Origin: a virus
Taxonomy: Duplodnaviria > Caudoviricetes
Virus record (IMG/VR): IMGVR_UViG_3300025141_000158
Span: 1-48,917 of that record
DNA: 48,917 nucleotides
Strand: one strand, 5' to 3'
Shown here: piece after piece, positions 5,500 to 48,253 of the stretch
How the letters are laid out: each line of letters begins with the position of its first letter
How positions within the stretch are numbered: the first letter of the stretch is position 1
Notes under the pieces: model-generated
What the model was told of the DNA's origin: nothing
The model's database searches: none
Seen by the model: only the letters and a program-made list of their open reading frames with translations
Position numbers and translations under genes: made by a program

Positions 5500-5522
5500 C
5501 TGTGTTACCGATTGGTACACAG
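5500..5522. promoter_or_regulatory. 23-bp palindromic parS-like site, copy 1
   Basis: CTGTGTTACCGATTGGTACACAG; intergenic. Confidence 0.75.
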
Positions 5523-5563
5523 TAGTCTTTATCTTTTATTAATAACTTAAAGGAGAAACCCAA

Positions 5564-5971
5564 ATGGGAATCTTAGATGTTAACTTGAATGATGCAGAAG
5601 AACTGAAGACGTTGAAAGATGGCGAGGAAGTAATGCTACGGATTGGTCGTGCGGAGGAAACTCCAAACCGTAATGATCCAAGTCGTTTCAACCTTGCACT
5701 TACGTTTGATGTTCCCGATGATAAGTTGGTAGACGATATACGTGTATGGCTTCCTATTCCTAGTGCAGTCACTAAGGAAGATGATCCTAAGCGTTACGTC
5801 AAGCAGGTCAACCGTTTCAAGATGTTCTGTGACTGCTTCGGTATTGATACTGGTGGTAATATTCAAACTGAAGATATGCTCGGACTTGAAGGTTGGGTTA
5901 TCATCGCTGAGGATACGGGATTAAACGGTGAGCCACAAAATAGTGTCCGCCGTTTTATCAAAAAGAAGTAG
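5564..5971 (+). CDS. Putative ssDNA-binding protein (DUF669-like OB fold)
   Basis: AAGGAG SD; beta-rich pattern ending in NSVRRF; follows the AAA_24 gene. Confidence 0.6.
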   Translation: MGILDVNLNDAEELKTLKDGEEVMLRIGRAEETPNRNDPSRFNLALTFDVPDDKLVDDIRVWLPIPSAVTKEDDPKRYVKQVNRFKMFCDCFGIDTGGNIQTEDMLGLEGWVIIAEDTGLNGEPQNSVRRFIKKK

Positions 5972-5995
5972 TTCTCTAGTAACATTCTGAAGATT

Positions 5996-6042
5996 GAGAG
6001 GCGTTCTTACGTTGTAAAGTAAGTTCGCCTCTCTTTCTTTTT
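5996..6042 (+). terminator. Terminator or long hairpin
   Basis: GAGAGGCG..CTTAC / GTAAG..CGCCTCTC followed by a T-rich tail. Confidence 0.75.
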
Positions 6043-6057
6043 ACTTAACGAGGAGAT

Positions 6058-6309
6058 ATGCGATTAACTTTTGATATACCTGATGAGCAACATGCAGTAC
6101 TTGTACGCTGTATTCCACACGGGTGGCGGAAGCATACATACAGAGCTTTAATACAAGGATTTGTTGAGCAATTAGAAAAAGATCCAACGGCTGTTATGAA
6201 GGACTTAATAACTAAGCACCTTGACATTACAGCTATGACAATGAAAGGCATGGAAAATGGATCTGATCAGCGAACAAACCAACCTACAAACTCTGACAGA
6301 GAAGGATAG
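6058..6309 (+). CDS. Small putative DNA-binding protein (ribbon-helix-helix-like)
   Basis: GAGGAG SD; MRLTFDIPDEQHAVL strand-helix start. Confidence 0.6.
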   Translation: MRLTFDIPDEQHAVLVRCIPHGWRKHTYRALIQGFVEQLEKDPTAVMKDLITKHLDITAMTMKGMENGSDQRTNQPTNSDREG

Positions 6310-6466
6310 ACTTGACTTAATTCTAGATGTACGCAAGCGTAGACGAGAACGCAGCCAGTCTAAATTTAACAAAAAGTCAAAACCAAAACGTACGCAAAAG
6401 ATGTTGGCTGGTCTTAATGATGAGCAGTTACATTTGTTGCTTAATACTTTAAGGACTGAAAAATGA
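6257..6466 (+). CDS. Hypothetical basic protein
   Basis: ATGA overlap with the downstream gene. Confidence 0.65.
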   Translation: MDLISEQTNLQTLTEKDRLDLILDVRKRRRERSQSKFNKKSKPKRTQKMLAGLNDEQLHLLLNTLRTEK

Positions 6467-7824
6467 GTGAAGCAGTAGTTGAATTAAATAACCTACCTGT
6501 AAATGCTATTGAGTTTTCAGATAGAGCAAGGGAGAACTATAAAGATTTAGATGTACTAGCTAAAGATATAGCAGAGAAAGGTGTTATACAACCTATAGCT
6601 GTTATGCGTAATCCTGAAAGTGCTGAACATCACTATAAGTTATTAGCTGGGGGAAGGCGATTTTCTGCTGTTGTTTTATCCGAATCTACTCACATTCCTT
6701 GTAGAATTTACCCAGAGACTTTATCAGAACTAGACCAAAAAGAAATAGAGTTGATGGAAAATATTAGTCGAGATGATTTCGACTGGAAAGAAGAAGTAGC
6801 TCTACGAGATCAAATCCAAAAACTACAAGAGGAACGTCACGGTAAGCAAGCGGGGTCTGGTGGTGGTCACTCTATGCGTGACACTGCCAAGATGTTGGGA
6901 ACAAGTCCTGCTAGCATTAGTCGTGACCTTACTCTAGCGCGGGGCTTGGAGGCACATGAAGATGAACTATCCAAAGCAAAAAGTAAAAGCGAAGCCTTAC
7001 GGACGCTTAAGAAAATTGAAAGAAAGCAAGAAGAAAAGGTTGTTGCGGAGAATCTGGAAAAGTCTTTGCAGAATGATGGGAATGAGAGGCTTAAACGAAC
7101 TCTAACCAATGGTTACCTAGTCAAGGATTTCTTTGAAGGTGTTAGCGTGGTTCCTGATAGAGCTGCTTCTTTTATCGAAGTAGACCCTCCTTATGCTATA
7201 GCACTTGATAAGATAAAGAGAGGAGCTGAAAGAGAAACAAGCCCAGGTATAGAAAATTACAATGAAGTATCAAGTGAGGATTACCAAGACTTTTTAGATA
7301 ATCTATTTATAGAGTGTTATCGTGTCTTAGCTCTTAATGGTTGGATTGTCTGTTGGTATGGCATACAGTGGTATCATGTTGTATTAGCTAGCATGGAGAA
7401 CGCGGGATTCCAAGTTATTGATCTTCCAGCTATCTGGACAAAAACTGACCATCAAGGGCAAACTAGAGTTCCTGACGTTCGTTTAGGTAATGTATATGAG
7501 CCTTTCTTTTATGCTCGTAAAGATAGTTCAGCAGTAATTAGACAACCTGGTCGAACCAATCAGTTTAACTTTAAATCATTACATCCTGAGCATAAGGTTC
7601 ACCCTACAGAACGGCCGATTGAAATGATAGAAGAAGTCATAAGAACCTTCTGTGTACCTGGTGGTCATATAATGGTTCCATTCTTAGGCAGTGGCAACAC
7701 GTTGCTAGCTGCATCTAACTTAGGCTCTACTTGTTTTGGTTACGATCTTAGTGAAGAATATAAGAATGCTTACTTAAAACGGGTAATGGATGGTGAGCCT
7801 GGAAAGTATAAGAGTTACCGATGA
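6463..7824 (+). CDS. ParB-like (CTPase fold) + HTH + beta-class N6-adenine/N4-cytosine DNA methyltransferase fusion
   Basis: GVIQPIAV, LLAGGRRFSA, ELMENISRDDF (ParB N-domain); SMRDTAKMLGTSPASISRDL (HTH); DPPY, HPTERP, VPFLGSGNT (MTase). Confidence 0.9.
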   Translation: MSEAVVELNNLPVNAIEFSDRARENYKDLDVLAKDIAEKGVIQPIAVMRNPESAEHHYKLLAGGRRFSAVVLSESTHIPCRIYPETLSELDQKEIELMENISRDDFDWKEEVALRDQIQKLQEERHGKQAGSGGGHSMRDTAKMLGTSPASISRDLTLARGLEAHEDELSKAKSKSEALRTLKKIERKQEEKVVAENLEKSLQNDGNERLKRTLTNGYLVKDFFEGVSVVPDRAASFIEVDPPYAIALDKIKRGAERETSPGIENYNEVSSEDYQDFLDNLFIECYRVLALNGWIVCWYGIQWYHVVLASMENAGFQVIDLPAIWTKTDHQGQTRVPDVRLGNVYEPFFYARKDSSAVIRQPGRTNQFNFKSLHPEHKVHPTERPIEMIEEVIRTFCVPGGHIMVPFLGSGNTLLAASNLGSTCFGYDLSEEYKNAYLKRVMDGEPGKYKSYR

Positions 7825-8021
7825 AATGTAATGAGTGCGGTACTAAATTAAGGGGCGCTGTTAATGCAGATGTATATGCTTGCTTTAGTTGCAAGGTTGC
7901 ATACAGTGGGATAGACGCACGTAATAAAAGTCGGATAAAAAACAAATCAGATAGGATAAATGAAGCTAAGCAGTACTATAAAAAGGTTGGAGAAAAAATA
8001 AAGAGAGGGGAAAATATATGA
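7821..8021 (+). CDS. Small zinc-ribbon protein
   Basis: CNEC...CFSC; ATGA overlaps. Confidence 0.7.
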   Translation: MKCNECGTKLRGAVNADVYACFSCKVAYSGIDARNKSRIKNKSDRINEAKQYYKKVGEKIKRGENI

Positions 8022-10408
8022 CCGATGCACCTTATGTTGCGGGTAGTCCCTTTGAGAAAATAGCTATTGTAGGGGAATATCCAGGTGCTGAAGAAGAACG
8101 CTGTGGGGGTGCGTTCGTAGGTAAGGCAGGACAACTACTAACAGAACTCTTACAACATGCAGGAATAAGTAGACAGCAGTGTTACTTAGATAACGTGTTC
8201 CAATTCAGGCCTGCACGAAATGATATAAGCCCGTTCTTACGAGTACAAGAAGGTAAGACAAGAGAAAGTGCTGAGTACCATACTAACCGAGAACAACTAC
8301 GACAACGCTTATCAGACAGTAAGGCTAACGTCATTGTTGCTTTAGGTAACGTGTCTCTTTATACTTTGACAGGAAAGACTAACGTAACAAAACAACGAGG
8401 CTCTATACTTGAAAGCACCTTACTTCCCGGTAAGAAAGTTATTCCTGTAATACACCCAAGCGCTGCTCTACGTGAGTTCCTGTTCCGTTACTTTATTGTG
8501 AATGACTTCTTACGTGTTCGCAAGGAAAGTGAATTTCCAGAGCTAAGAATTAGAAACAGGCATCTTGTTCTTAACCCATCAATGGAAGATGTTGAACAGT
8601 TCATTGCACGTTGTCGTACGTTAAATCGTATAGCATATGATATTGAAGTTCGGGGCATGGAGATGAGTCACATAGCTATAGCCTCTGAACCTAATATGAG
8701 TGTGTGTATTCCTTTTGTTAATGGACAAGCAGACTATTGGAACCCTGAGCAAGAGGCTCACATCATGTGTCTGTTGGCTGATCTGTTGGAAGACCCTAAT
8801 GTGGAAAAGATAGGCCAGAACTTATCTTTTGACGCTACCTTTCTGTACTCTAAGTATGGTATAGTAGGATCACCATTGCAGGACACAATGATAGCTGCAG
8901 GGATTCTCTATCCTGACTTTCCTAAAGGACTAGACTTTCTTGTTGCTCAGTACTGTGATGGGGAACCGTACTATAAGGATGACGGCAAGGAATGGTTCAA
9001 GAATCCATTCGGCAGTGAGGAAGTATTCAGACGCTACAATGCTATGGACAGTGCTGTTCTCATGGAAATCTTTCCTAAACAAGAAGAAGAACTAAAGAAG
9101 CAAGGTAACTTTGATGCGTATGAGAAACAGCGTTCCCTTCTCCATCCACTAGTCTATGCAGGTAACAAAGGTATAAGGATGGATACAGAGGCTATGAATG
9201 ATGCCTCTATGGAGTGCTCCCGTAAAATCTCAGCACTACAAGAAGAACTAAATGAAATAGCAGGTAGGGAACTTAATCCCAATAGTCCTAAGCAACTAAA
9301 GGAATATTTCTATATCGAGAAACGTCAAAGAGCTTACACAAGGAATGGTAATATAACTGTGGATGATAAGGCACTTAAGCGTATGAGTGCTAAAGGAATG
9401 AAAGAAGCAGATATAATACTTGAACTGCGTAAGGAACGTAAGATGCAAGGTACGTACTATGAAATGAAGCTAGACGAGGATAATCGTTTACGCTGTTCAT
9501 TCAACCCTGTAGGCACTGCTCAAGGTCGTATCAGTAGCTCCAAGACAATACGCGGAACTGGTGCTAATCTTCAGAACCAACCATGGCAGATGAACTCACT
9601 GATGCTTGCGGATGATGGTTATATCTTAATCAATCAAGACTTAGGACAAGCAGAAAATCGCGTAGTTGCATTTGTTAGTGGAGAGAATAAGATGATGCGA
9701 GCTTTTGAAGAAGGCATTGATATTCATACACAAACAGCTAGTATGATATATGAGCTACAACCTGAGGATGTAACTAAGGATCAAAGGGATTGGGGTAAGC
9801 GTGCTAACCATGGACTCAACTATGATCTTGGCTATAGAAGTTTTGCCCTCTACTATCAGACCACAGAAAAAGAAGCAAAGAACATTGTAGAGCGCTATCA
9901 CCACATCTATAAAGGTGTGCGTGAATGGCACGCTACAGTACGTGAAGAACTAAGCAGAAGTAACAAGACACTAACAAATTGTTTCGGGCGTAAGAGGACG
10001 TTTCTTGATCGCTGGGGACATGATCTATTTAAAGTCGCTTATTCCTACATACCACAATCTACTATCGCAGAACTAATGAACACATACGGAGTCTGTTTTC
10101 TATACGAACGTCAAGATCTTTTTCCAGAAGTTCAATTCCTTAACACTATCCATGATAGTATTCGTTATCAAATTCCCTTATCAGTAGGGAATGAACGTAT
10201 AATAGAAATTATCAAGACAGTAAAGGAAAGTTTAGAACATGAGTTAGAATGGAGAGGAAAGACCTTTTCTATTCCTGTTGATACTGAACTAGGGTTTACA
10301 TTCAATAAAACAACTATGATTGAATGGAACGCTAAAAAGGTTGATACTGTAAGTGTGGGTGATTTATCTGTGGAGCTGGAAAATTATGTCGAAAAGAGTG
10401 CTCAATGA
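8018..10408 (+). CDS. polA: Family A DNA polymerase with an N-terminal uracil-DNA-glycosylase-like domain and a 3'-5' exonuclease
   Basis: VGEYPGAEE..GGAFVGKAG and HPSAALR (UDG family 4-like); YDIE, NLSFD, YNAMD (exo); GRISS, NLQN, DLGQAENR, KRANHGLNY, IHDS (PolA). Confidence 0.93.
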   Translation: MTDAPYVAGSPFEKIAIVGEYPGAEEERCGGAFVGKAGQLLTELLQHAGISRQQCYLDNVFQFRPARNDISPFLRVQEGKTRESAEYHTNREQLRQRLSDSKANVIVALGNVSLYTLTGKTNVTKQRGSILESTLLPGKKVIPVIHPSAALREFLFRYFIVNDFLRVRKESEFPELRIRNRHLVLNPSMEDVEQFIARCRTLNRIAYDIEVRGMEMSHIAIASEPNMSVCIPFVNGQADYWNPEQEAHIMCLLADLLEDPNVEKIGQNLSFDATFLYSKYGIVGSPLQDTMIAAGILYPDFPKGLDFLVAQYCDGEPYYKDDGKEWFKNPFGSEEVFRRYNAMDSAVLMEIFPKQEEELKKQGNFDAYEKQRSLLHPLVYAGNKGIRMDTEAMNDASMECSRKISALQEELNEIAGRELNPNSPKQLKEYFYIEKRQRAYTRNGNITVDDKALKRMSAKGMKEADIILELRKERKMQGTYYEMKLDEDNRLRCSFNPVGTAQGRISSSKTIRGTGANLQNQPWQMNSLMLADDGYILINQDLGQAENRVVAFVSGENKMMRAFEEGIDIHTQTASMIYELQPEDVTKDQRDWGKRANHGLNYDLGYRSFALYYQTTEKEAKNIVERYHHIYKGVREWHATVREELSRSNKTLTNCFGRKRTFLDRWGHDLFKVAYSYIPQSTIAELMNTYGVCFLYERQDLFPEVQFLNTIHDSIRYQIPLSVGNERIIEIIKTVKESLEHELEWRGKTFSIPVDTELGFTFNKTTMIEWNAKKVDTVSVGDLSVELENYVEKSAQ

Positions 10409-11549
10409 TTGGGTAGACTCGTACATGGAGTTTACCGAGAACACTGAGCCTCCTATTGGATTTAGACGTTGGGTTGCTCTATCAACCATAGCAAGTGTTA
10501 TGGAACGTAAATGTGTTCTGCAGTGGGGAACAGAGACATTCTATCCTAATATGTTTATTGTGCTTGTCGGACCTCCTGCAGCCCGTAAAGGAACTGCAAT
10601 GAGAGTCGGCAAATCATTCTTAGATGCTTTAGGTATAGCGGCTGCTAGTGATGAATCTAGTCGCCAGAAATTAATAAAGAGTTTACAAGAGAGTGCAGCT
10701 GTGGATCAAACAGAAGATAGTACTATGATACACCATTCTAGTATGACAATCCACAGTAGTGAGTTAACAGTATTTCTTGGTTATGGCTCAAGAGAGATGT
10801 TATCAATGCTTTGTAAATGGTATGACTGCGAGGGGCGTTATACTTATGACACTCATGCAAGGGGAAAGGAAGAAATACCAAATGTTTGGGTTCACTTATT
10901 GGGAGCGACTACGCCAGGTCAACTACGTGCGGCTCTGCCTGAAGATGCTGTCGGGAGTGGGTTTACTAGTAGGGTTGTATTTGTATATGAAGAAAAGAAA
11001 GGCAAGACAGTTCTCAAGCCTAGCCTCACAGATGAACAGGCCAGACTTGGAGAACTACTTGCACAAGATTTAGCTGAGATTAGAAATCTAGTTGGAGACT
11101 TTATTCCCACAGAAGAGTACGAGGAGCGGTATTATAAGTGGTATGCAGATAGTGAGAGTAGGCAAATCTTTGTTGATCCTCGTCTTGATTACTATGTGCA
11201 GAGGCGACCAACACACTTGTTTAAATTATCCATGCTCTGCTGTGCTAGTCGAGGTAATTCTAAGTTACTTGAGTTAGAAGATTTAGAAAGGGCTATATCA
11301 TATTTAGATACTGCAGAAGAAAGTATGCCACAAGTGTTTGCAGGAGTAGGTGCTAATCCTTTAGCGGCTGTGCAATCAAGGTTATCAACCGTTGTTGAGC
11401 AATTTCAAAGTGTCCCAATCTCTACTGTTGCTCAGATGTTTGCGGATGATGCCAGTGCCACACAACTACTTGAGGCTATACAAGCATTACAACAGCAAGG
11501 AAAAATAACACATGACCTTTCAGCACAGAAGCTAAGATGGAACAACTAA
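10386..11549 (+). CDS. DUF3987/YfjI-like P-loop NTPase, candidate replicative helicase
   Basis: GPPAARKGT Walker A; SSEL Walker B-like; LLGATT; GFTSR; start 10386 has a GGAG SD-like site. Confidence 0.7.
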   Translation: MSKRVLNDWVDSYMEFTENTEPPIGFRRWVALSTIASVMERKCVLQWGTETFYPNMFIVLVGPPAARKGTAMRVGKSFLDALGIAAASDESSRQKLIKSLQESAAVDQTEDSTMIHHSSMTIHSSELTVFLGYGSREMLSMLCKWYDCEGRYTYDTHARGKEEIPNVWVHLLGATTPGQLRAALPEDAVGSGFTSRVVFVYEEKKGKTVLKPSLTDEQARLGELLAQDLAEIRNLVGDFIPTEEYEERYYKWYADSESRQIFVDPRLDYYVQRRPTHLFKLSMLCCASRGNSKLLELEDLERAISYLDTAEESMPQVFAGVGANPLAAVQSRLSTVVEQFQSVPISTVAQMFADDASATQLLEAIQALQQQGKITHDLSAQKLRWNN

Positions 11550-11572
11550 CTGTGTTGCATATTGATACACAG
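11550..11572. promoter_or_regulatory. 23-bp palindromic parS-like site, copy 2
   Basis: CTGTGTTGCATATTGATACACAG, immediately after the stop codon. Confidence 0.75.
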
Positions 11573-11674
11573 ACATAACGCACCAGATGTCACCAGATCG
11601 TCTAACTAGTCTAAGATATATATCGACATAGGGGACTATGTTTAAACCCACCAGAACGCAAACCAGAGGATAGA

Positions 11675-15417: not shown

Positions 15418-15428
15418 AGTGAATCCTT

Positions 15429-17276: not shown

Positions 17277-17293
17277 TATTTATCTCCTATTAG

Positions 17294-21572: not shown

Positions 21573-21595
21573 CTGTGTTTCAGGTTGCAATACAG
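21573..21595. promoter_or_regulatory. 23-bp palindromic parS-like site, copy 3
   Basis: CTGTGTTTCAGGTTGCAATACAG in a short intergenic gap. Confidence 0.75.
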
Positions 21596-21596
21596 T

Positions 21597-30588: not shown

Positions 30589-30911
30589 TGTATTGTAAAT
30601 CCTGTAGCATTAATTTGACAATCAGAACCGCTAGAAGCTATAACTGCTGTGACATCTGCATCTCTACTTGCCAACCATCCACTGGGATTAGTAAAACTAA
30701 ATGAAATACCCTCTACTGATACATCTATTTTCCATTCAGCTAATACCGTAGATCCATCTTTCAGCTGTATAGTACTATCAGCGTCTACATGGCCACTCAC
30801 ATGATCTGTAACAATTACTTTATTTGAAACTGCCGACTTAGTAGCTGTCGCACCAGAATTTGTTCCAGCTGCAGTGGCACTCCATCTACCATTAAGAGCA
30901 ACACTATCCAT
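30585..30911 (-). CDS. Small beta-rich putative virion protein
   Basis: GAGGTG SD; S/T/A/G-rich. Confidence 0.65.
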   Translation of the reverse strand: MDSVALNGRWSATAAGTNSGATATKSAVSNKVIVTDHVSGHVDADSTIQLKDGSTVLAEWKIDVSVEGISFSFTNPSGWLASRDADVTAVIASSGSDCQINATGFTIQ

Positions 30912-31866
30912 AACTCACCTCTTTCAGAGTATCTTCTCTAGCCCATTTTTTTATTATTTCTATCATAAACTTAATTCGATCATTATAAGTGTGCATTTCT
31001 CGTACTTTTATATGTCCACTCTTTGCTATTTCTTCGCGTTCCATAGGATGTTTTAAAGCCCAATCAATTTTCTCAATAGCTTCTTCGGGACTTGTATATC
31101 CTAAGAAATCTTCGCTTTCTTTAAATCCTAAACTTTCAATACCAACAACATCAGTGTTTGTAACAAGACAGGTTCCATAACTCATAGTTTCAAAAAATCG
31201 CATATTAAGATCATCACGAATTGAAACATTAAACCCTACTCTACCTCGTGCATAACGAACAGCGGCATCAGCCATAAAACAATTAAAAGACAACCAACTG
31301 TTATTAAACCGATTAAAAACACAGTCTAAATATTCTAAGCGATTTTTTCCCTCTTGTACACCATTAACTATATGTCCGTTATTTAAGTACCCAACAAAGA
31401 CAACATCATGTCTTTTATTTACTCCCCATTCACCTAAGATTTCATTTGAGGCTCTAGTTAATTCTCCAGCAGTAAGATCAACACTCGGAGTACACGCCAA
31501 CGGAAGCCAATGAACATTTTCAACTCCATCACCCTTCATCTTATCTACAGCTGGAAGTTGAGCAACAAAAACAATGTCAAACTTCTTTGCCCACTCTAAT
31601 CTTTGTTCATACCCTAAGTGCGTATCAACAAGATAACAACACTTTGGTGCATCACCTTTAGGAAGTTCCATAGGAATGTCATCTCTACCGTCATCCACAA
31701 ACAACCAAAAATCATGTTCTCCATAGTCAACCTCATCGTGAAACGGCCTAGTATAACGCTTCATTCCTGTGTCTTTAAAACCTTCACGAAAGAACGCTTC
31801 ACTTATTCTTCTTGCTGTACCATTATTTCTTATATCAGCGTTATAAAACAATCCAGGTGATTTCAT
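30904..31866 (-). CDS. CgeB-like GT-B glycosyltransferase
   Basis: HWLPLAC, DVVFVG, FNVSIRDDLNMRFFETMSYG, IA..G...V...HTY..R. Confidence 0.88.
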   Translation of the reverse strand: MKSPGLFYNADIRNNGTARRISEAFFREGFKDTGMKRYTRPFHDEVDYGEHDFWLFVDDGRDDIPMELPKGDAPKCCYLVDTHLGYEQRLEWAKKFDIVFVAQLPAVDKMKGDGVENVHWLPLACTPSVDLTAGELTRASNEILGEWGVNKRHDVVFVGYLNNGHIVNGVQEGKNRLEYLDCVFNRFNNSWLSFNCFMADAAVRYARGRVGFNVSIRDDLNMRFFETMSYGTCLVTNTDVVGIESLGFKESEDFLGYTSPEEAIEKIDWALKHPMEREEIAKSGHIKVREMHTYNDRIKFMIEIIKKWAREDTLKEVSYG

Positions 31867-33116
31867 TATGCAGCCACCTTTCTTGCTTCCACTTTTATTG
31901 CTCCTACTTTATCTTCCTCAATATTATCTATTTTAAACCCGCAAGTTTCAATTAAGTTCTGAAGTGCGTCTTTATTAAAAGCGTGAACATGAGTATAATC
32001 AATAAGCATAGTAGGAAGCCTATTGTGGTTAGGAACAGACAAAAACAACATCCCATCCTCTCTTAATAATCTAAACCATTCTTTCATAGTACGCAAGACA
32101 TCTATTGTGTGTTCTAAAATATGTGTGGCCACGATATAAGATTGACTACCATCATCAAGAGGAATATCAGCAGCATCTGCAATTAACTCTGCTTTACTAT
32201 CTTTTCCTTGCTGTCCTCCCGCATTTCCCACTGAATTATTTATATCAACACCTAAAGCTCCCTGTACCTCCTTATCACCACATCCTATATTAAGTCCAGG
32301 CTCGCCATTAAAATTTTTAGTTACTTTTTCTAACCATAAATCTTCACACGATTCTTCGGCACTATTTAATCTTGATTCCACTTTTGCCCATCCCGCTTGA
32401 AAACATTCATGCCAAGCTTTTACTCCATGTTTTCTTATTAGTGCGTTATTTGTTAACTCTTGATGCCAAGTTGAGTCCCAGTGACCTTTGTGTACTCTAT
32501 TGCCTGTTTGTTGCCCAAAGTGATGTAAGTAGCAACGCTTATCAACACGTAAATCATAACCCGCTTTAGTTAGTTTAATACTTAAGTCTAAATCATCACC
32601 ACCTGGTAATGTAGGATCTAGTCCGCCTAAATCTTTTAAAACATTAGTTCGTATTAACAAACAAAAACCAATTAATACAGAAGAATTAAAATTATTATCT
32701 GTATCTATAAACATTAAGCTTTGAGCACCAGCAACAAAATTAGAACAAGGATTAACAGCTCCTACGCACCCTTCTTTAAAGTTAGAAATAAGAATACGCC
32801 AAAACTCTTGTTGACCAGGTATAAATACAACATCATCATTTAATAAACAAAAGTACTCGGTATCACAGTCATTTAAAGCTAAGTTAATAGCTCCCATCCA
32901 ACCAAGATTTTCTTTAGGCTCTATAACTGTTAGAGGTAATTTGTTATTAATGTTATTTCCCATGTCTAACTTATATTTCACTTCTCCTTTCCCACCATTG
33001 TCAATAACAATAACTTTTAACGGGTATTCAGTATGCTTAAAAAGGCTCTTAATGCACCATTCTAACTGTTGTAAATTATGCCATGTAGGAATAGCCACAG
33101 TAAGTGAAGGTTTCAT
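31866..33116 (-). CDS. GT2 glycosyltransferase fused to a class I SAM methyltransferase
   Basis: VAIPTWHN, VIDNG, LLNDD, DDLDLS; then LNIGCG, HILEH, LSVPN. Confidence 0.9.
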   Translation of the reverse strand: MKPSLTVAIPTWHNLQQLEWCIKSLFKHTEYPLKVIVIDNGGKGEVKYKLDMGNNINNKLPLTVIEPKENLGWMGAINLALNDCDTEYFCLLNDDVVFIPGQQEFWRILISNFKEGCVGAVNPCSNFVAGAQSLMFIDTDNNFNSSVLIGFCLLIRTNVLKDLGGLDPTLPGGDDLDLSIKLTKAGYDLRVDKRCYLHHFGQQTGNRVHKGHWDSTWHQELTNNALIRKHGVKAWHECFQAGWAKVESRLNSAEESCEDLWLEKVTKNFNGEPGLNIGCGDKEVQGALGVDINNSVGNAGGQQGKDSKAELIADAADIPLDDGSQSYIVATHILEHTIDVLRTMKEWFRLLREDGMLFLSVPNHNRLPTMLIDYTHVHAFNKDALQNLIETCGFKIDNIEEDKVGAIKVEARKVAA

Positions 33117-34217: not shown

Positions 34218-34247
34218 GTGAGGAAGCAGATTTCTCTGCCTCCCCAC
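34218..34247 (-). terminator. RNA hairpin after the capsid/decoration genes (terminator or stabiliser)
   Basis: GTGGGGAGGCAGA-GAAA-TCTGCTTCCTCAC on the - strand with G-U pairs; no U-tract. Confidence 0.65.
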
Positions 34248-34269
34248 TGTGATACAACATGAAACAAAG
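34247..34269. promoter_or_regulatory. 23-bp palindromic parS-like site, copy 4
   Basis: CTGTGATACAACATGAAACAAAG, directly after a stop codon. Confidence 0.7.
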
Positions 34270-37510: not shown

Positions 37511-37511
37511 A

Positions 37512-40067: not shown

Positions 40068-40068
40068 A

Positions 40069-40494: not shown

Positions 40495-40496
40495 AA

Positions 40497-40519
40497 CTGT
40501 GTTTCACCCTGCAATAGAG
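40497..40519. promoter_or_regulatory. 23-bp palindromic parS-like site, copy 5
   Basis: CTGTGTTTCACCCTGCAATAGAG fills almost all of the 25-bp portal-endolysin gap. Confidence 0.7.
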
Positions 40520-42670
40520 TTAAGAGGCTTCTGCTTCCGCAGCTTGCCCACCTTCACTTGGAGCAACACCCTCAGCAAAGGCTTGTGGATTAAGAGGCCC
40601 AATTCCCGTATCTGCATTTTGTCCTGCTGTAACTGCATCTTGTGCAGCTTGTGCTTGAGGGTCTGTAAACTCTGGTGCTTTACCTTCCTGTGTTCGGGCC
40701 ATTTTTTGTTGGTTTATTTCAGCTGCTTTATCTTTTCCTTGTTGCTGTAACATCTCACTAGCATACTCCAACATTGGGAGCAACTCATCTACTGTTTCCT
40801 CACCGAAACCACGAACAAGAACACGCCTTGCAAGTTCTGGAATATTCGGAGGAAGCCCAAACGACTCAACCATGAGAGGCGTTAACCCAGAGAATAAATT
40901 CAACAAGTCCATAAACTGCTTTCTCTCTACATTGATAGCCGAAGCATGACTTGTAACATCCATAGTTGTCCAATACTCTCCTCTAGCCATTTCAGGAGAA
41001 ATCTCAACAAAACTAGATGCACTACGATCAATAAAGAAAAGTTGATCTGGCAAATACTGTAAATCCATTTGCAACATCTTACGAGCTTTACGAACTTGAA
41101 ATTCTGTCAATAACGCACTACGTCTATTCTCACGACTAGTATTACGTTTTTCCATTATACTAGCTTCTGTTGCTGTATCTACTTTAGGCATAGAGATCGG
41201 CTGTGGTGTCCCTACAGACCTATCAAACATTTGCTGTAAAAGCGACATCATCTCATTTTTCTCATTTGGAACCTGTTGAAACGGAAGTGGAAGTAAAGCA
41301 TTTGCCGCTCCACGCTCTGCCAGACCTGGAACTTCTATAACACTTCCATCAGGTGCATCTAACATATCGGCTATAACAGTTTTGTTGATCCCTAACTTCG
41401 GATCAACAAGCCACACATTCTTTTGCTTCCTTATAGTAGAAAGAAAGGAATCAAGAATCTCATTAATAAGAGCTTGTACCGTATCACCACCACCAAGAAG
41501 AAGTGTAGGCAAGTGATACCAACTATCCATACCAGCGTGATAAGATACAACTTCTACGGGATAATCATCTATTCTGTCATAGGGCCACTCTTCTTCTTCT
41601 TGTATAAAAACATCAGCGCCTTCTACGATAGTTATAAGAAGATTTCTAAACTTGCCTTCTGCTACAGGAAAGTTCCTTGCCCATATTTCCCATCCACGAA
41701 CTACATCAAAACCATCTTCTACTTCTTGTCCTTCATCATACTGAGGAGCATCTGCATACCTGCTTGGCTCTATCTGATCTGTATTTTTATAGCCTGGATT
41801 AGCTTGTACTTCAGCCAATGGAAGTTCCCAACCAAAAGCTATCCAACGTGCATCACCTGGCCCTTCTGATGCAAAAGGATCAGTTAAGAACATATCAGGC
41901 CTCCATCTTACTGCATATGGAGCACCTCTACGTATGTTGGTATTTGCGCTAGGCTCTGCCCGATCTAAGTATTGTTGATGCAATTTTATGTGATTATTTA
42001 AAGCAGCTAATAAAGGAGCGTTTTTACCTTTTCTACCTTGTGCTTTAAGCGTTTTACGCAATTCTTTATGTGCTTCCAAATGGAAAACATGATCGTCATC
42101 AGGCCCCACTCGTAGTGGTTGCCCAATAGCCAAGAGAGTGTTTTCTTCTTCTGGATCTTCATCGTTATCTAATGCTCCCTCTAATTCAGCTACTAATTCT
42201 TGTTGTAATTCTTTTTCATCTAATGTATAACCAATTTTAGCTACACCATAAGGATTAAGAAAAGCATCTAAAACTATACGTTCATCTACACGAAGTTGGT
42301 TAGTTTCACGGTAACGATAATTGATAACTTTTTCTGCTGCTTGAGCATAGCTTAAACTTTGCGGATCTTCTTCATCCATTCTTTCCGCAGCTGCTCTATT
42401 CTGTGGATGCACTCTAAACATAGGAGCGCGATCCAACATATTAGCGATAGACTGATCAATCCAACCAAATATAAGACCGCTTTTAGTTCTCCTAATATGC
42501 TCTTCATCATAATCATCACCTTCAGTTGCTTCACGATCTGTAGAGGCTTCATTATAATATTGCTTTTGTAGTATTTCACAGGCTTCAAATAATGGTTTAG
42601 CTTTTTGTTGGCTATACCCTATTTGATTTTGCCAGTAAGCTACTCTTTCGTCTTCTGTATCAGGATACAT
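40520..42670 (-). CDS. Portal protein (P22-like)
   Basis: 716 aa right after terL; YGVAKIGY and TATEASI motifs; Gln-rich tail. Confidence 0.85.
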   Translation of the reverse strand: MYPDTEDERVAYWQNQIGYSQQKAKPLFEACEILQKQYYNEASTDREATEGDDYDEEHIRRTKSGLIFGWIDQSIANMLDRAPMFRVHPQNRAAAERMDEEDPQSLSYAQAAEKVINYRYRETNQLRVDERIVLDAFLNPYGVAKIGYTLDEKELQQELVAELEGALDNDEDPEEENTLLAIGQPLRVGPDDDHVFHLEAHKELRKTLKAQGRKGKNAPLLAALNNHIKLHQQYLDRAEPSANTNIRRGAPYAVRWRPDMFLTDPFASEGPGDARWIAFGWELPLAEVQANPGYKNTDQIEPSRYADAPQYDEGQEVEDGFDVVRGWEIWARNFPVAEGKFRNLLITIVEGADVFIQEEEEWPYDRIDDYPVEVVSYHAGMDSWYHLPTLLLGGGDTVQALINEILDSFLSTIRKQKNVWLVDPKLGINKTVIADMLDAPDGSVIEVPGLAERGAANALLPLPFQQVPNEKNEMMSLLQQMFDRSVGTPQPISMPKVDTATEASIMEKRNTSRENRRSALLTEFQVRKARKMLQMDLQYLPDQLFFIDRSASSFVEISPEMARGEYWTTMDVTSHASAINVERKQFMDLLNLFSGLTPLMVESFGLPPNIPELARRVLVRGFGEETVDELLPMLEYASEMLQQQGKDKAAEINQQKMARTQEGKAPEFTDPQAQAAQDAVTAGQNADTGIGPLNPQAFAEGVAPSEGGQAAEAEAS

Positions 42671-44294
42671 TCATTACCTGTTCTGAGTCCCAATCTTCAT
42701 CAAGTGGACTCTTTTCGGGGAAGGGAAGTACTATAGCTCCTCTATTCCAAGCACGTCCACGCCTTCTATTGCTATTCATTTCACGATAATCATCAAAAGA
42801 TAATCCTTGAACTTCCAAGCTAAAAGCTCCCTCATCCACAGGATCAAGTCCCTTAGCCACAAGTAAGTCATCTAACTTCATCCCGATAAGAGCAAAAGCA
42901 TCTACTTGGTCATCATTCTTACCATTAGGGAACTTTGTAAGTTCATATTGAAAATTGGCAAGCCAGGGAGCAAATGAGGGTGCGTGAACGTAACCCATCT
43001 GCATAGCTCCCGCAATAGACCCTGCACGTTGTGGAGAATCCTTACGACCTTTACCAATAACTGAAACATCTATACAAGATGTCCAAGCTCCCGCTTCTTT
43101 TCGTGCTTTTGTAAGTATCGGCCCTATAGCTTTCTGCATATGTACTTTTTCAAAGAACCATTGTAAAGGCTCATATTCAAGCATCAAGTCTACACACTGT
43201 GAGACACCACCAAGAATATCAACTTGCTTACGCCAAAGATCAATTATCCAAATGTGACCACGCGAACATACTCCAAACACCATATGAACAGTGTAATCCC
43301 CACTACCCTCTGTAAGAGCAAAGTCACTTGCTCCGTAAAGCGTTATATTCTCTGGTAATTCACTTCTATTATAAAGCCGTAAGTCTTCAGGCTTAAACAA
43401 TCCTCCTTCATCTGAAAATGGCTTCTGCTGATGAACAGCCATAAAGATGTTAGGATTCCTTTTCCTTAGTTGTTCCAACTCATCTTTTGTTCTTCTGTTA
43501 GGACCATCAGGAAGAAGCGGCTCACCTTCCTCACGACCAAGAAGATCATCTTCTTCAGCTAAAGAGGGAACCTTTATAATATCCCACTCTTCTTCACTTT
43601 CCTCATGGAGCTTCTCTATTCTACCACCCAAGTCATCATCATGCCACCTTTGCATTATAAGAATAACACTTCCAGGCCCATCCTTATATGAGCGAAGACG
43701 ATTAAGCAAAACGCCTGCATACCAGTCCCACACTAATCTTCTTTGATTGTCACTAAGGGCACTCTCATAACTCTTAAATGGATCATCAATTACAGCAATA
43801 TGACCGTGAAATCCTATAAGTCCTCCACCTACACCCTCCGCTTTATACTCACCCCCTTGATTCGTTTTCCACTCAGCCATAGCCGTAGCATCATGGGCTA
43901 AGGCGACTTCGGGAAAAAGTAAAGCATATTTAGGATGCTGTAAAAAGTTCCGTACATTCCTTCCAAAACTCTTTGCCAGAGCCTCATCATAAGAAGTCTC
44001 GATGAACTCGTGCGTAGGGTTCCTACCGAAGAACCAACTGGGAAAAAGCTCGCTTGAGAGGCGGGACTTGCCTATGGCCGGTGGCACAAAAATAGCAAGC
44101 CGCCTTAATCTACCAGCCTCCACATCCTCAAGTTTACGTGCAATCAACCTATGTATGTCGAAAGGCTCGTAACTGGGATCCATGAACTTACAGTAGTCTA
44201 TTAGCGAAGTTTTCGCGGCCTGTCTACGTGCAAGTTCTTCAGCAGCACCCTTAACGGTGAGCTCTGTCTTTTCCCCGAAAGACTCACTCATCAC
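42660..44294 (-). CDS. terL: Terminase large subunit
   Basis: PPAIGKS Walker A; VIDDP Walker B; MQRWH.DDL; SDFA; FPNGKNDDQVDA nuclease motif. Confidence 0.95.
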   Translation of the reverse strand: MMSESFGEKTELTVKGAAEELARRQAAKTSLIDYCKFMDPSYEPFDIHRLIARKLEDVEAGRLRRLAIFVPPAIGKSRLSSELFPSWFFGRNPTHEFIETSYDEALAKSFGRNVRNFLQHPKYALLFPEVALAHDATAMAEWKTNQGGEYKAEGVGGGLIGFHGHIAVIDDPFKSYESALSDNQRRLVWDWYAGVLLNRLRSYKDGPGSVILIMQRWHDDDLGGRIEKLHEESEEEWDIIKVPSLAEEDDLLGREEGEPLLPDGPNRRTKDELEQLRKRNPNIFMAVHQQKPFSDEGGLFKPEDLRLYNRSELPENITLYGASDFALTEGSGDYTVHMVFGVCSRGHIWIIDLWRKQVDILGGVSQCVDLMLEYEPLQWFFEKVHMQKAIGPILTKARKEAGAWTSCIDVSVIGKGRKDSPQRAGSIAGAMQMGYVHAPSFAPWLANFQYELTKFPNGKNDDQVDAFALIGMKLDDLLVAKGLDPVDEGAFSLEVQGLSFDDYREMNSNRRRGRAWNRGAIVLPFPEKSPLDEDWDSEQVMNVS

Positions 44295-44928
44295 TAACGG
44301 TACTTTCTGTGGGAGCCGCCTCTGATAGCGCTTCCATAACTAGCTTTTGACTTTCTGGACTAATATCACTAAACTCCGCCTCGATTGCTTCAGGCCGTTC
44401 TGCTGCTTGATTAAGAGCTGCTATAAGTTGATCTGTACTTGCTTCATCTATAGAATGTACTTGTTGACTCTCTATCTCTTTACGTTCTGTATAGCCACGA
44501 TCTTTGCCGAGCGTTTGAAGAACCTTCCAACTATAAGAAAGGTTCCCATCTTCAACTGCCTGAAATACATTATCCTCAGCTGTATCTACTACCTTCTCTC
44601 TTGCCTCATTAAAGAGGTCACGGAGTCTTGGATTCCGCACAATGTGATGTCGAACAGCAGCTCCGCTACCAAGGCCAACCCGCTGAGCTATTTTGGACAA
44701 GATGCCCTTGCAGTTTATAATTGCCTCTGCTATGTCTGATTCCCTAGCGCGTTCCTGTTCACGGACTGCTGTCTTTACTTCCACATCTTGTTTTGCTCTT
44801 GCACTAATGGCAGGAGCGCTACAGCCAATAACGCCAGCTGCTTGTTCTAATGTACGTGTACCTGTAAGAGCATTTATGATAACTGCACTATCTATCTCTC
44901 TACGTCTACCTTGTCTACCTGCTGGCAT
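44284..44928 (-). CDS. terS: Terminase small subunit (HTH)
   Basis: HTH segments; LQTLGKDRGYTER motif; immediately upstream of terL. Confidence 0.75.
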   Translation of the reverse strand: MPAGRQGRRREIDSAVIINALTGTRTLEQAAGVIGCSAPAISARAKQDVEVKTAVREQERARESDIAEAIINCKGILSKIAQRVGLGSGAAVRHHIVRNPRLRDLFNEAREKVVDTAEDNVFQAVEDGNLSYSWKVLQTLGKDRGYTERKEIESQQVHSIDEASTDQLIAALNQAAERPEAIEAEFSDISPESQKLVMEALSEAAPTESTVSDE

Positions 44929-44947
44929 ATTGCTCTCTCACTTAGGG

Positions 44948-45151
44948 TACGGAGGGAAGATCACAATCAGAGCTACGTGCAGGGCTGGATGTTGGGCGTA
45001 ACTCAATTTGGCCCTCCCTCCGGCCCGTTCCGTTAAGAACTTCTGCTGTTTCAGCGATTCTCTTACTCGTATCATTTCCAAGAAGCGTACTAACACCCCC
45101 TTGTCTGATGAGAGCATGAGCTTCCCAAAGACTCCGTATACTATCAGCCCT
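44948..45151. ncRNA. Candidate structured RNA/leader upstream of terS
   Basis: Long-range complementarity 44948-44971 with 45104-45138, plus a crossing pair 44981-44987/45145-45151. Confidence 0.4.
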
Positions 45152-45175
45152 ACTATCATTTATAACCATACAAAC

Positions 45176-45204
45176 AAGATAGCATCTAAAAACAGAGTTG
45201 TCAA
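45176..45204 (-). promoter_or_regulatory. Late-arm promoter TTGACA-N17-TATCTT
   Basis: On the - strand: TTGACA 45204-45199, TATCTT 45181-45176. Confidence 0.7.
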
Positions 45205-45501
45205 AACATTTCCTTAGGCAAAAGATGGATCTTTCTTATCCACTTAGGACATTTGAAAAATAGGTGGGAATTTCAGAGGTAGCGAGAATATAAGGCGGGA
45301 GGCTCGATTGGGGATGCCGTTTCGAGTACTCATTATATTTGCAACATCTTTTTTTATCTCATTTGGTATCTTTTTTTATCGTACTCAAAACATTGCCGGT
45401 ACTAAAGAAAAAAATTATTCTTTCCCAGGTATTTTTCTTAGTGCAGCAATTTTGCCGGTACTAAGAAGGATTAGACAAAAGAATTATTTTTCCTGTACCT
45501 A

Positions 45502-45529
45502 TTGACAGGATATCTCAGTACCTTATATT
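45502..45529 (+). promoter_or_regulatory. Promoter TTGACA-N16-TATATT
   Basis: TTGACA 45502-45507, TATATT 45524-45529. Confidence 0.75.
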
Positions 45530-45587
45530 CCCTTCATGTTCTTTGACAATCGAATATGTGGACTAGTTCGGAATAGGAAATAATAAG

Positions 45588-45974
45588 ATGCCTATCACGA
45601 ATGAAGAAATCTTAAACGAATGGTATCCCGAAGGGACTATGCAAATAGATTCCAAGGTAGACGGGATAGAATGCACGACAATTATAGACGTAGATCAAGT
45701 ACCTATTGATATGATTAAAGAAGATTACGAAGATAAGGTACGTAGAAGATTGGCAGATAAGTACCGTAAATTTCGTAAACTAGAAACAACGAATCCAAAT
45801 CAATATAAAAGATACGTTGATGCTAGTAATAAAGAAGGTACTTTTATATTGTCCGATCTTTATGAACGTCAAGTACGTGCTAAGAAATCGAATGAAGAAA
45901 AAGCAATTTCTTTAGTTGAAGGAATGTCGAACGAAGAAAAAGAGAGATTCTTAGCAATGTTGCAATCCAAATAA
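45588..45974 (+). CDS. Hypothetical protein, first gene of the + arm (monocistronic)
   Basis: AGGA SD and AATAAGATG start; own promoter and terminator. Confidence 0.8.
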   Translation: MPITNEEILNEWYPEGTMQIDSKVDGIECTTIIDVDQVPIDMIKEDYEDKVRRRLADKYRKFRKLETTNPNQYKRYVDASNKEGTFILSDLYERQVRAKKSNEEKAISLVEGMSNEEKERFLAMLQSK

Positions 45975-46020
45975 TTTACTAAACATTTAATTGAACTAGT
46001 TCGCATATTCGATCAAAGGA

Positions 46021-46057
46021 AATAGACATTGGCAAAATAGCTAGTGTCTATTTTTTT
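46021..46057 (+). terminator. Rho-independent terminator
   Basis: AATAGACATTGGC / GCTAGTGTCTATT followed by a T run. Confidence 0.85.
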
Positions 46058-46062
46058 GTCTA

Positions 46063-46085
46063 CTCTGTTACAGATTGCAACCCAG
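46063..46085. promoter_or_regulatory. 23-bp palindromic parS-like site, copy 6
   Basis: CTCTGTTACAGATTGCAACCCAG. Confidence 0.65.
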
Positions 46086-46087
46086 AT

Positions 46088-46168
46088 GCAAGGATTTCTT
46101 TAGCTAAATAACAATATACAGCAAGGATTACATAGCTTTTTTAAAAATATATAGCAAGGATTACATAG
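46088..46168 (+). repeat. Three direct repeats at a 33-bp period
   Basis: GCAAGGATT at 46088, 46121 and 46154; the last two share AGCAAGGATTACATAG. Confidence 0.85.
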
Positions 46169-46235
46169 AACTATACATATAATAGACTATTGCTACCCTA
46201 TGTCACGACCTTTCTTGAATGTGTGCAACAGAGTT

Positions 46236-46271
<36 letters not shown>

Positions 46272-46354
46272 AGCTAACAACACAAGAAAACCCAATTATA
46301 CGGGTACCATAGGGGGGGTATAGACTATGTTATACATGGATATCTAAATATCCT

Positions 46355-46383
46355 TTGACAACTAAATAAATCCCCTATACATT
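46355..46383 (+). promoter_or_regulatory. Putative promoter TTGACA-N17-TACATT
   Basis: TTGACAACT at 46355, upstream of the 46428 gene. Confidence 0.6.
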
Positions 46384-46427
46384 ATATATACATATTTTCC
46401 CATTCCCTTATAACTCGGAGAAACAAG

Positions 46428-46799
46428 ATGCCAAGAGCTATATCAATCAACGTCCAGAGCCACGTCCCAATTTCCCTCATAGCCAAAACAATCCAGACCT
46501 TCACACAGGCAAACCAGCCCGTCCCCCGAAACACAAGCTCCCTCATCAGGACAGTACTTGAATTGTGGACAGAAGCCTGTGGCATTCAGGAACTATCGTC
46601 ACAAGAAGAAGCACTAGACATCTGTGCTCAAGTCGGTATTGCCCGTCCCGAGAGGCTCGTCCTCACAACAGACAGAGCTCCCAATGCCCGTGACTTCCTG
46701 AGACAACAAGTAACAGGGGAAGAACATCAGAGCCAATCAGCAGAAGAACTAGAGAATGCCCTCCTCTCAGCCCTCGAAAAAAAAGATGAGGAGTCGTGA
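46428..46799 (+). CDS. Hypothetical early protein (possible ribbon-helix-helix)
   Basis: GGAG SD; strand then helices (NTSSLIRTVLELW). Confidence 0.75.
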   Translation: MPRAISINVQSHVPISLIAKTIQTFTQANQPVPRNTSSLIRTVLELWTEACGIQELSSQEEALDICAQVGIARPERLVLTTDRAPNARDFLRQQVTGEEHQSQSAEELENALLSALEKKDEES

Positions 46800-46808
46800 A
46801 AAAAACCC

Positions 46809-46836
46809 TTGACAACTTTCTAATATTAGCGATCTT
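46809..46836 (+). promoter_or_regulatory. Putative promoter (TTGACAACTT family)
   Basis: TTGACA 46809-46814; weak -10 (GATCTT at N16). Confidence 0.5.
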
Positions 46837-46884
46837 TATATATGTCTGGGAATGTTCCCAACTAAAAAAGAAAGAAGGCCAGAG

Positions 46885-47134
46885 ATGATCGTAAGTACAA
46901 GTTAAAACAGTAGAAGACCTTTGCAAACAGATCGAAGATAGTTGGGAAGACGATTGCTACGGAGATGTAGAAGACTTTTTTAATGTCTCCAAAGAAGTTT
47001 ACCAAACGATTAAAGATAGTTTACGTTCTCTTGATGTAGACGAATTGGTTGAGCTAAGAGAAAATGACAGGTCTTTAATGGCAACATTAAATCTAGCCAT
47101 ATTTTCTGTAATAATAACTCGGAAAGGAAAATAA
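46885..47134 (+). pseudogene. Acidic early gene with a frameshift just after the start
   Basis: ATG 46885 (AAGG SD) stops after 6 codons; the +1 frame 46895-47134 is open for 79 codons and ends next to the following start. Confidence 0.6.
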
Positions 47135-47135
47135 G

Positions 47136-47534
47136 ATGCCTTCAATAGAAGATATAAGAACTCAAAGAAAGAAAGATAAAGAAGTACTGCTTAGAATGAA
47201 TAGGGCTTGTACTGTTCTAATGACTAGCATGAACATCTCGGCCCAAGAATTAAAATGGGAACGAGGAAAAAGTAGAAAAACTTATAATAACGCATTAGAA
47301 ACTTTAATTGAGACGATAGCTAATTCTTACAGAGAACTAGAAAAGGTAAAAATCGAAACTCAATTTTATAAAGATAACCTTGACAAGGCAAAGGCCTTAG
47401 AAGATGCAAAGGAAGTATCCCCTCCCGAATTAATTACTAAAGATGATGATGAAGTTTATTTAATGCAATGCTCTCCAGAAGAATTTACTAATCACATGAT
47501 GGACAAACTATCGGACGCCCAACAAGGAGGCTAA
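47136..47534 (+). CDS. Hypothetical coiled-coil early protein
   Basis: AAGGA SD and AATAAGATG start. Confidence 0.8.
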   Translation: MPSIEDIRTQRKKDKEVLLRMNRACTVLMTSMNISAQELKWERGKSRKTYNNALETLIETIANSYRELEKVKIETQFYKDNLDKAKALEDAKEVSPPELITKDDDEVYLMQCSPEEFTNHMMDKLSDAQQGG

Positions 47535-47538
47535 TAAG

Positions 47539-47766
47539 ATGGCTAAGTATCAACTAGTAGAAAGTAGAATGATTAAGGAACTCGGTGTTGATCTCTTGGA
47601 GGCTAGCGAGCAGGCAACCTTCGGAGATGAACACGCGATAGGTATTTGCATCAAGGATTGTGGCTATTATGTAGAGGGAATCGAGCCTGATGCAGAAGGA
47701 TACCTTTGTGAAGATTGCGGAACTAATACAGTATCATCAACATGCGTGGCTATAGGAGTAATGTAG
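47539..47766 (+). CDS. Small zinc-finger protein
   Basis: CIKDC...EPDA...CEDC; GGAGG SD. Confidence 0.8.
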   Translation: MAKYQLVESRMIKELGVDLLEASEQATFGDEHAIGICIKDCGYYVEGIEPDAEGYLCEDCGTNTVSSTCVAIGVM

Positions 47767-47771
47767 CTAAC

Positions 47772-47806
47772 ATAAGGGGAGGGGCTAGATTGCCCTCCCC
47801 TTATTT
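47772..47806 (+). terminator. Rho-independent terminator/hairpin
   Basis: ATAAGGGGAGGG / CCCTCCCCTTAT. Confidence 0.75.
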
Positions 47807-47821
47807 ACTTAGGAGAATAAG

Positions 47822-48229
47822 ATGACTAAAGAAATAAAAGATGAGCAAATATTAACATTTTTTATGCCTAATCGTAGAGATTATGATGAGCCTGAATGGA
47901 ATAACTACGAAACAATTCTAAGGCTTATCTCCCCCAAAAAAGATTATACTCACATGGATTACTTATTCAGGCCTGGACACGATCCTTCTTGGGAGTTTAT
48001 GCGAGACAAGATAGGAGGCTATATTCAACACACGATTCTTAGCCGAGATGGAAAGACGATAGATGCTGTTTGTGATGAGGATGGGCTATCAAAAGAATTA
48101 GAGCCTAATCATAATTTGTATGACCACATTGATCCATTAGAAAAGCAATCAGAACACACATTAATAGTACCGGAGATAGGAACGCTAGTTGGCAATGTCA
48201 TTATTTGGCTACGTGGGAACATTAAATAA
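47822..48229 (+). CDS. DUF3846-like protein
   Basis: IGGYIQ...CDEDGL..L.PN...LVGNVII pattern. Confidence 0.7.
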   Translation: MTKEIKDEQILTFFMPNRRDYDEPEWNNYETILRLISPKKDYTHMDYLFRPGHDPSWEFMRDKIGGYIQHTILSRDGKTIDAVCDEDGLSKELEPNHNLYDHIDPLEKQSEHTLIVPEIGTLVGNVIIWLRGNIK

Positions 48230-48230
48230 A

Positions 48231-48253
48231 CTGTGTTCCATTTGGTAACAAAG
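48231..48253. promoter_or_regulatory. 23-bp palindromic parS-like site, copy 7
   Basis: CTGTGTTCCATTTGGTAACAAAG, just after a stop codon. Confidence 0.7.

Follow-up and report, generated by a model that had tools for sequence, protein, structure and literature searches.

Why should a phage genome carry seven copies of one intergenic 23-bp palindrome together with a gene that joins a ParB N-domain and a helix-turn-helix (HTH) to a DNA methyltransferase? The question is raised by the virus record IMGVR_UViG_3300025141_000158 (Duplodnaviria; Caudoviricetes), whose whole 48,917-nt stretch is referred to here as the window and represents a circular phage genome with ends overlapping by 133 nt (region 48677-48917 plus 1-321). 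The initial annotation proposed that the fusion protein loads on the palindromes as ParB loads on parS, slides away from them and methylates phage DNA in cis. Our comparative analysis indicates that the fusion very probably reads the sites, as judged from residue-base covariation between the two, and makes the remainder of that proposal reasonably likely in a modified form.

All seven palindromes were confirmed. Each has one or two mismatches to the consensus, the next-best window having five, and all of them are intergenic when judged against the list of open reading frames (ORFs). In a position weight matrix (PWM) scan they score 25.9-30.4, whereas the background does not exceed 11.4, and in a leave-one-out version every site ranks above all non-sites. 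An order-2 Markov simulation expects 0.025 windows at three or fewer mismatches, where seven are observed, and a palindrome search with no prior pattern also recovers the site family. Site 1 (5500-5522) lies upstream of an SSB-like gene, while site 2 (11550-11572) is immediately 3′ of the primase stop codon, a location occupied in 24/50 of the related genomes described below. Sites 3 (21573-21595) and 4 (34247-34269) are established in short gaps of the late operon, site 5 (40497-40519) occupies the gap ahead of the endolysin gene, site 6 (46063-46085) lies in the long intergenic region separating the two arms, and site 7 (48231-48253) is found 15 nt ahead of a sigma70-like promoter match (48269-48296). 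The tendency of the sites to follow stop codons was also borne out, since those at 11550, 34247, 40497 and 48231 abut a stop or lie 1 nt away, and the site at 21573 lies 1 nt beyond a minus-strand stop codon. The half-site suspected near 46224 is the top-scoring unpaired half-site (46224-46233, minus strand) and adjoins a long A run. Next to site 6, at 46086-46270, GCAAGGATT occurs three times at intervals of about 33 nt, and is followed by the half-site and the run of about 30 A; this region is possibly an origin or a terminus of the genome, and an assembly artefact could account for the A run.

The fusion gene (6463-7824, plus strand) encodes a 453-aa protein that has the parts initially ascribed to it, namely GGRR (63-66) and ENISR (99-103) of the ParB N-domain, an HTH (helices 138-145 and 149-164) and the methyltransferase motifs DPPY...FxGxG. 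Pfam (PF02195, E = 3e-10; PF01555, E = 2e-23), a structure model (pLDDT 91) and PDB matches define a ParB N-domain at 9-101, a ParB-type HTH at ~135-190, a long helix at 175-205 and a beta-class N6/N4 methyltransferase at ~215-445. Profile and fold searches (PDB, Foldseek) returned ParB, Noc, KorB, CcrM, M.BceJIV and N4CMT. The residues of the nucleotide pocket (R21, R23, G63, R65, R66, E99, N100 and R103) are invariant in 71/71 fusions. Methylase motif IV (DPPY) precedes motif I (FxGxG) and both are intact (D241 71/71; G409/G411 71/71); a DPPY motif is the usual sign of an adenine target, a rule that has exceptions. Box II reads GGRR in 61/71 fusions, with Gly at the position of the hydrolytic Glu, and ParB proteins without this Glu are reported to form longer-lived clamps with a wider spread in a heterologous host, the spreading reach of ParB being ~10 kb (PMC8367383). 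A homodimer of the fusion was predicted with a score of 0.73, compared with 0.00 for the best control, at a mark that is met by 20/30 solved pairs and 1/23 single chains; contacts agree by at least 74% between model runs, with pLDDT of at least 76. The interface (residues 301-395) lies wholly in the methylase domain, so the fusion is predicted to dimerise there, in place of the C-terminal gate of ParB, although comparable dimers have been solved and the model may recall them.

We scanned 52 clade records, consisting of the window, Desulfofustis phage LS06-2018-MD01, 22 viral records selected through their fusion gene and another 28 through their primase, from a clade estimated at ~790 matching metagenome stretches. 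The Desulfofustis phage is the closest named relative (40% identity) and is predicted to be lytic, with a host inferred from CRISPR (10.1101/2023.02.06.527410). The joint occurrence of motif and fusion that the initial annotation had put forward as a check was found throughout, as 50/50 fusion-bearing genomes hold 6-21 copies of a palindrome of their own (log10 p -7.7 to -86, with 49 at -11.7 or below), compared with a best log10 p of -7.5 among 27 unrelated phage stretches of at least 15 kb. The two clade records with no fusion hit are partial, the polymerase likewise being present in only 50/52, and one of the two has nine sites. Relatives keeping the motif without the fusion, which had been named as the observation that would speak against the proposal, were not seen among PaP2, Tiera and EBPR podovirus 3; these have primase and polymerase in common with the clade, no fusion and no site set. 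ParA is missing as initially noted (PF13614 in 0/50 records versus 14/14 control genomes). No evidence of a prophage state was obtained, 18/18 matches in a species-genome collection lying on metagenome-assembled contigs shorter than 49 kb. The sequence of the sites is specific to each genome and their layout is kept, with 67/71 consensuses of 23 bp, three of 24 bp and one of 22 bp. Because every genome has its own variant, a scan of viral contigs with the exact window consensus yielded just two loci. An 88-kb provirus record, L015 (G003), matches this consensus at 10001-10023 and again 229 bp further on, with no fusion match within the 20 kb examined; these matches are probably an unrelated operator. 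Beyond the clade, the fusion phage MW202489 has seven 34-bp GC-rich palindromes that form a candidate site set, and the cultured Vibrio phage VS-ABTNL-3 has about nine weak intergenic 12-bp palindromes (AATT-N4-AATT).

That the fusion is the reader of the sites was argued from covariation. The counts exclude 6 outgroups as well as 2 partial genomes in which the fusion region is lacking, 3 loci whose motif calls were weak, 4 taxa that have no copy of a core gene, and 1 near-duplicate. With phylogeny removed, the two protein windows that best track site divergence among 812 are fusion residues 133-144 and 139-150 (r = 0.32 and 0.28), and the best window beyond the fusion reaches r = 0.26. Where fusion residue 149 is His or Arg, site position 6 is mostly G (20/24 vs 0/46 with other residues, in a set of 70 genomes and loci); Gln149 is paired with A6 (3/4) and Asp148 with G8 (6/6; Glu148 1/2; other residues 0/62). 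On a 66-taxon tree the pairs 149-G6 and 148-G8 each reached a family-wise p of 0.0025, the floor of 400 simulations, with p computed per site position and uncorrected over ten positions. Parsimony gave 17 and 13 steps for the first pair and 5 and 5 for the second, so these traits arose repeatedly. Arg139 goes with G5 (38/38 vs 15/28, p = 0.07). A test of column identity alone gave p = 0.44 for residue 149 and so overlooked it, since His and Arg are alike in reading G; a mutual-information test was used instead. The same associations recur in a held-out set, for which 190 loci were examined to give 47 non-redundant new fusions and 26 motif calls, 24 of them in the 23-bp register: 149-G6 in 3/3 vs 0/21, 148-G8 in 2/2 vs 1/22 and 139-G5 in 10/10 vs 7/14. 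By its helix pattern residue 149 aligns with R173 of ParB, which bonds to G, and with Q158 of Noc, which bonds to A (PMC7383237). The fusion proposed initially as the binder of the sites is hence very likely to be so, on covariation that includes the held-out loci. Setting of the outer site bases by methylase residue 384 was also considered as a candidate and was set aside, being significant with only about two origins behind it.

The resemblance of the sites to parS, which the initial annotation had explained as parS half-sites with a 3-bp spacer for insulation, proved unsupported, as the site sequences vary widely over the clade. In parS the base read by R173 adjoins the dyad and GTGAAA runs outward. 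In three phage lineages with Asp-Arg-Thr, GTGAA instead runs inward from the G at position 6 tracked by residue 149. Since residue 149 is the R173 equivalent, the orientation of the half-sites is probably the reverse of that in parS, if contact geometry is kept, and the TGTTnCA likeness in the window is probably a coincidence in the wrong register. The 16-bp parS consensus has no match in the window within 2 mismatches. Perfect or one-mismatch chromosomal parS sequences were found in relatives G014 (position 4439), G047 (23469) and G064 (34902), apart from their own 23-bp sites; two relatives carry a separate perfect parS, and such phages may recruit host ParB.

Concerning the layout, crude ORF calls show 345 of 564 sites over the clade to be intergenic, against an expected 6%, and 72 to be mid-gene, against an expected 74%. 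In 42/42 near-complete genomes the spacing is more regular than that of random positions and of random intergenic gaps; in the window the coefficient of variation is 0.45, against 0.81 and 1.04, respectively. Median density is one site per 4.5 kb, and bases are at most ~4 kb away from the nearest site, a distance that rises to 6.3 kb in the window. The position of the sites relative to core genes is labile, no genome out of 50 has a site upstream of the fusion gene, and a sigma70 consensus is found no more than 40 bp away from 40/564 sites (7%). The conserved feature therefore seems to be genome coverage and not gene-specific control. Such even spacing fits the coverage by sliding proposed at the outset, sliding itself being presumed. 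At variable positions the two halves of a site pair in 738 of 1831 cases compared with 929 expected, and with no G-U bias, which might point to avoidance of perfect palindromes or to directional loading.

The target of the enzyme was approached through restriction-site avoidance in 44 clade genomes and 44 control sequences. None of the 22 6-bp palindromes that the clade avoids most strongly contains AG/CT. In terms of genome-word pairs, which are not independent, 10/612 palindromes with AG/CT are eliminated versus 123/1450 others, the counts in the controls being 70/351 and 183/1165. Words with TA are spared too, but likewise in the controls. AG is the top di- or trinucleotide in the contrast between clade and controls (p = 4e-4), and AG sparing is displayed by 84% of the 44 genomes versus 29% of 58 controls. 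Of the 21 six-mers that are nearly absent from the window, just one has AG, and this one was expected once. The 5-mers concur (1/10200 vs 13/12105 eliminated; reversed in the controls). AG or CT also stands at the edge of 65/71 site consensuses, and 5 of the 6 exceptions have Lys at methylase position 384. Six genomes with a diverged methylase, grouped after the fact, eliminate AG words more often (7/85, p = 0.002). These patterns hint at AG (m6A) or CT (m4C) as the target, and we give AG/CT an even chance of being the sequence modified. The blanket anti-restriction function suggested initially was too strong a claim: the window is still without about a dozen restriction-like 6-mers, and the enzyme clearly confers no blanket protection. 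The accessible parts of methylome papers on pink-berry (PMC9296519) and marine samples (PMC8919816) hold no data linkable to the clade.

Taken at its most explicit, the proposal is that a fusion dimer would bind each palindrome through its HTHs, that the dimeric clamp would close on nucleotide (CTP is assumed) and, once closed, would slide over a few kilobases, and that it would methylate the phage's own DNA in cis in a site-dependent manner, possibly at AG. Loading at sites would let a methylase with a frequent target cover new phage genomes without being absorbed by the host chromosome, or rewriting it, and the pay-off would be partial protection from restriction enzymes with AG/CT in their sites. 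We consider this course of events somewhat better than evenly probable. A bolder form is advanced tentatively, and is rather to be doubted than believed: in a widespread phage clade a ParB-type nucleotide clamp would deliver an AG methylase, which would enter the DNA at evenly spaced private addresses alone, travel along the entire phage genome and mark it in cis, sparing the host. Changing two or three residues of the recognition helix would suffice to reprogram the address, and methylation of the edge AG might gate reloading.

Several results pull in the other direction. The tree test that supports residues 148 and 149 was also passed by methylase residue 384 (site positions 1-2) and fusion residue 129, and five non-HTH columns pass at p = 0.01-0.047, so the covariation null is imperfect. 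No clade member that has lost the fusion was found, 64/69 new primase-picked loci carrying it whole and the remaining 5 having less than 3.8 kb of upstream sequence; co-occurrence consequently leans on three distant outgroups. One of the three distant fusion phages, Mel-JY34, yielded no site set. The hydrolytic Glu of Box II is kept in 9/71 fusions, ParB-fold fusions may bind ATP or no nucleotide (PMC12704722), and in a phage ParB activator the NTP residues are dispensable (PMC13229309). Promoter matches are slightly commoner in site-bearing gaps (48/179 vs 95/535). As for the target, the AG signal is weak in non-palindromic 6-mers (p = 0.15), missing in gapped words (p = 0.65) and reversed in the Desulfofustis phage; it exhibits no clear decay with distance from the sites (observed/expected 0.92 to 0.77, with few counts in the last bin), and it could reflect the enzyme sets of the hosts.

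These observations leave room for other functions of the same components. The fusion might sit on its sites as a KorB-like or stoperator-like regulator or as a roadblock, perhaps with an 83-aa partner, and the methylase might act independently of the sites. KorB silences from distal operators (PMC11790492), 288/564 phage sites are found between co-directional genes at a median of 13 nt ahead of the next start, and the gene of the 83-aa protein (6058-6309, plus strand) is core and lies just upstream of the fusion in examined loci. Such a role is nevertheless unlikely in our judgement, given the labile position of the sites, their absence ahead of the fusion gene, the few that lie near consensus promoters, a regular spacing that is unexpected for operators, and the window itself, in which no integrase or conserved repressor was found. 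The even spacing would equally suit a scaffold, and the fusion gene is core and within the replication operon; loading could then chiefly help to arrange or condense phage DNA during its replication, or to set the timing of replication or packaging, in the manner of Noc or of ParB condensates, with methylation secondary or local to the sites, for example as a feedback switch on the terminal AG that marks most consensuses and gives way mostly where Lys384 occurs. Relaxed avoidance of AG/CT words is genome-wide and not site-local, ParA is missing and the Lys384 group has only about two origins, and we regard this organising role as a little less likely still.

Very improbable, by comparison, is that something other than the fusion reads the sites, be it a small phage HTH protein, the 83-aa protein or a host factor. 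The window does have two small HTH genes, which the initial annotation had named as possible readers, but they occur in only 2/52 and 1/52 genomes. The 83-aa gene is present in 51/52 genomes, yet its product matches no Pfam family, is ribbon-helix-helix-like by eye only and displayed no covariation with the sites (best window r = 0.11, no column above z = 4.1). Base changes follow the recognition helix of the fusion. On the side of another reader, the unrelated provirus has two consensus matches and no fusion match in the 20 kb examined. RNA hairpins, terminators or chance repeats would agree with the many sites directly after stop codons; this explanation can practically be dismissed, because the halves pair less than if they were independent and with no G-U bias, the length is fixed, and chance is ruled out by the Markov simulation. 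Cis methylation by a fusion loaded at the palindromes thus remains the reading we prefer.

Compared with known systems, the phage fusion resembles chromosomal ParB-parS in its ParB N-domain and ParB-type HTH (PDB profile matches with E 1e-14 to 4e-18), in its palindromic site and in an Arg-G/Gln-A code at the R173-equivalent position (PMC7383237). It is not a ParABS system: ParA is lacking, the sites are evenly spread and not clustered (42/42 genomes over-dispersed), and they are 22-24 bp long, genome-specific and probably composed of inverted half-sites, while a methylase replaces the C-terminal dimer domain. With its Box I-III pocket residues and an HTH that appears to read a palindrome, the fusion is better likened to the ParB-family NTP clamps. 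Noc-NBS, KorB-OB, VirB and BisD similarly combine dispersed loading sites with action at a distance and no partition (PMC12704722; PMC11790492), but their output is membrane binding or gene regulation, whereas the phage cargo is a fused DNA-modifying enzyme. Unlike operators of a KorB-type repressor, the phage sites are seldom tied to promoters and in 50 genomes never precede the fusion gene, though they might still act on promoters from a distance. The methylase half is like the beta-class enzymes CcrM, M.BceJIV, M.RsrI and N4CMT in having DPPY before FxGxG and in its top Foldseek matches, and the predicted dimer through the catalytic domain is of the same kind; those enzymes find their targets without a separate loading site, and at ~20% identity to them the target of the fusion is not readable by homology. 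The same domain pair (PF02195 + PF01555) defines the ParB-fold::N6_N4 methyltransferase fusions, which are frequent in phages and for which an anti-defence role has been suggested; the accessible text on this class gives no binding sites, HTH code, target or cis mechanism (PMC12704722). ParB-activated phage T-dioxygenases also link a phage ParB-like protein to post-replicative DNA modification, but there the ParB is a separate protein without a DNA-binding domain and the NTP residues are not needed (PMC13229309). A full-text search retrieved no paper on these sites or on a site-loaded methylase, most subscription papers lying outside its coverage.

The rest of the window describes a phage that is probably lytic. 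Its replication arm encodes an exonuclease, Sak4, the fusion, a UDG-like/PolA polymerase and a primase, and is opposed by the late arm. Polymerase and DUF3987 primase (8018-11549, plus strand) are the replication genes that travel with the fusion; the former (8018-10408) is of family A and bears a uracil-DNA-glycosylase-like domain at its N-terminus. No integrase or ParA family was matched among the 62 window proteins. Another core protein with no known family is encoded at 1725-2084, being present in 49/52 genomes and absent from six outgroups, and an XRE-like HTH protein whose C-terminus is hydrophobic is encoded across the junction of the window ends, with no counterpart found in any of the other 51 genomes of the clade. 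The late arm (12043-44928) is unlike that of most clade members, with which the replication arm and the sites are held in common. Most of its genes have homologues in just 1-5/52 genomes, including a glycosyltransferase and a glycosyltransferase-methyltransferase (30904-33116) common to only 4/52, and the difference is a module swap; sites are nevertheless present in both types of late arm.

ParB-methyltransferase fusions are common in phages yet unexplained, and one large clade of them now gains DNA addresses, a small recognition code from which these can be predicted and a candidate target. If the cis model is true, this would be a ParB clamp whose task is neither DNA segregation nor gene regulation but the transport of an enzyme, and phage DNA would be told apart from that of the host by location, not by sequence. 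It would also offer a programmable tool for targeted methylation over a kilobase range.

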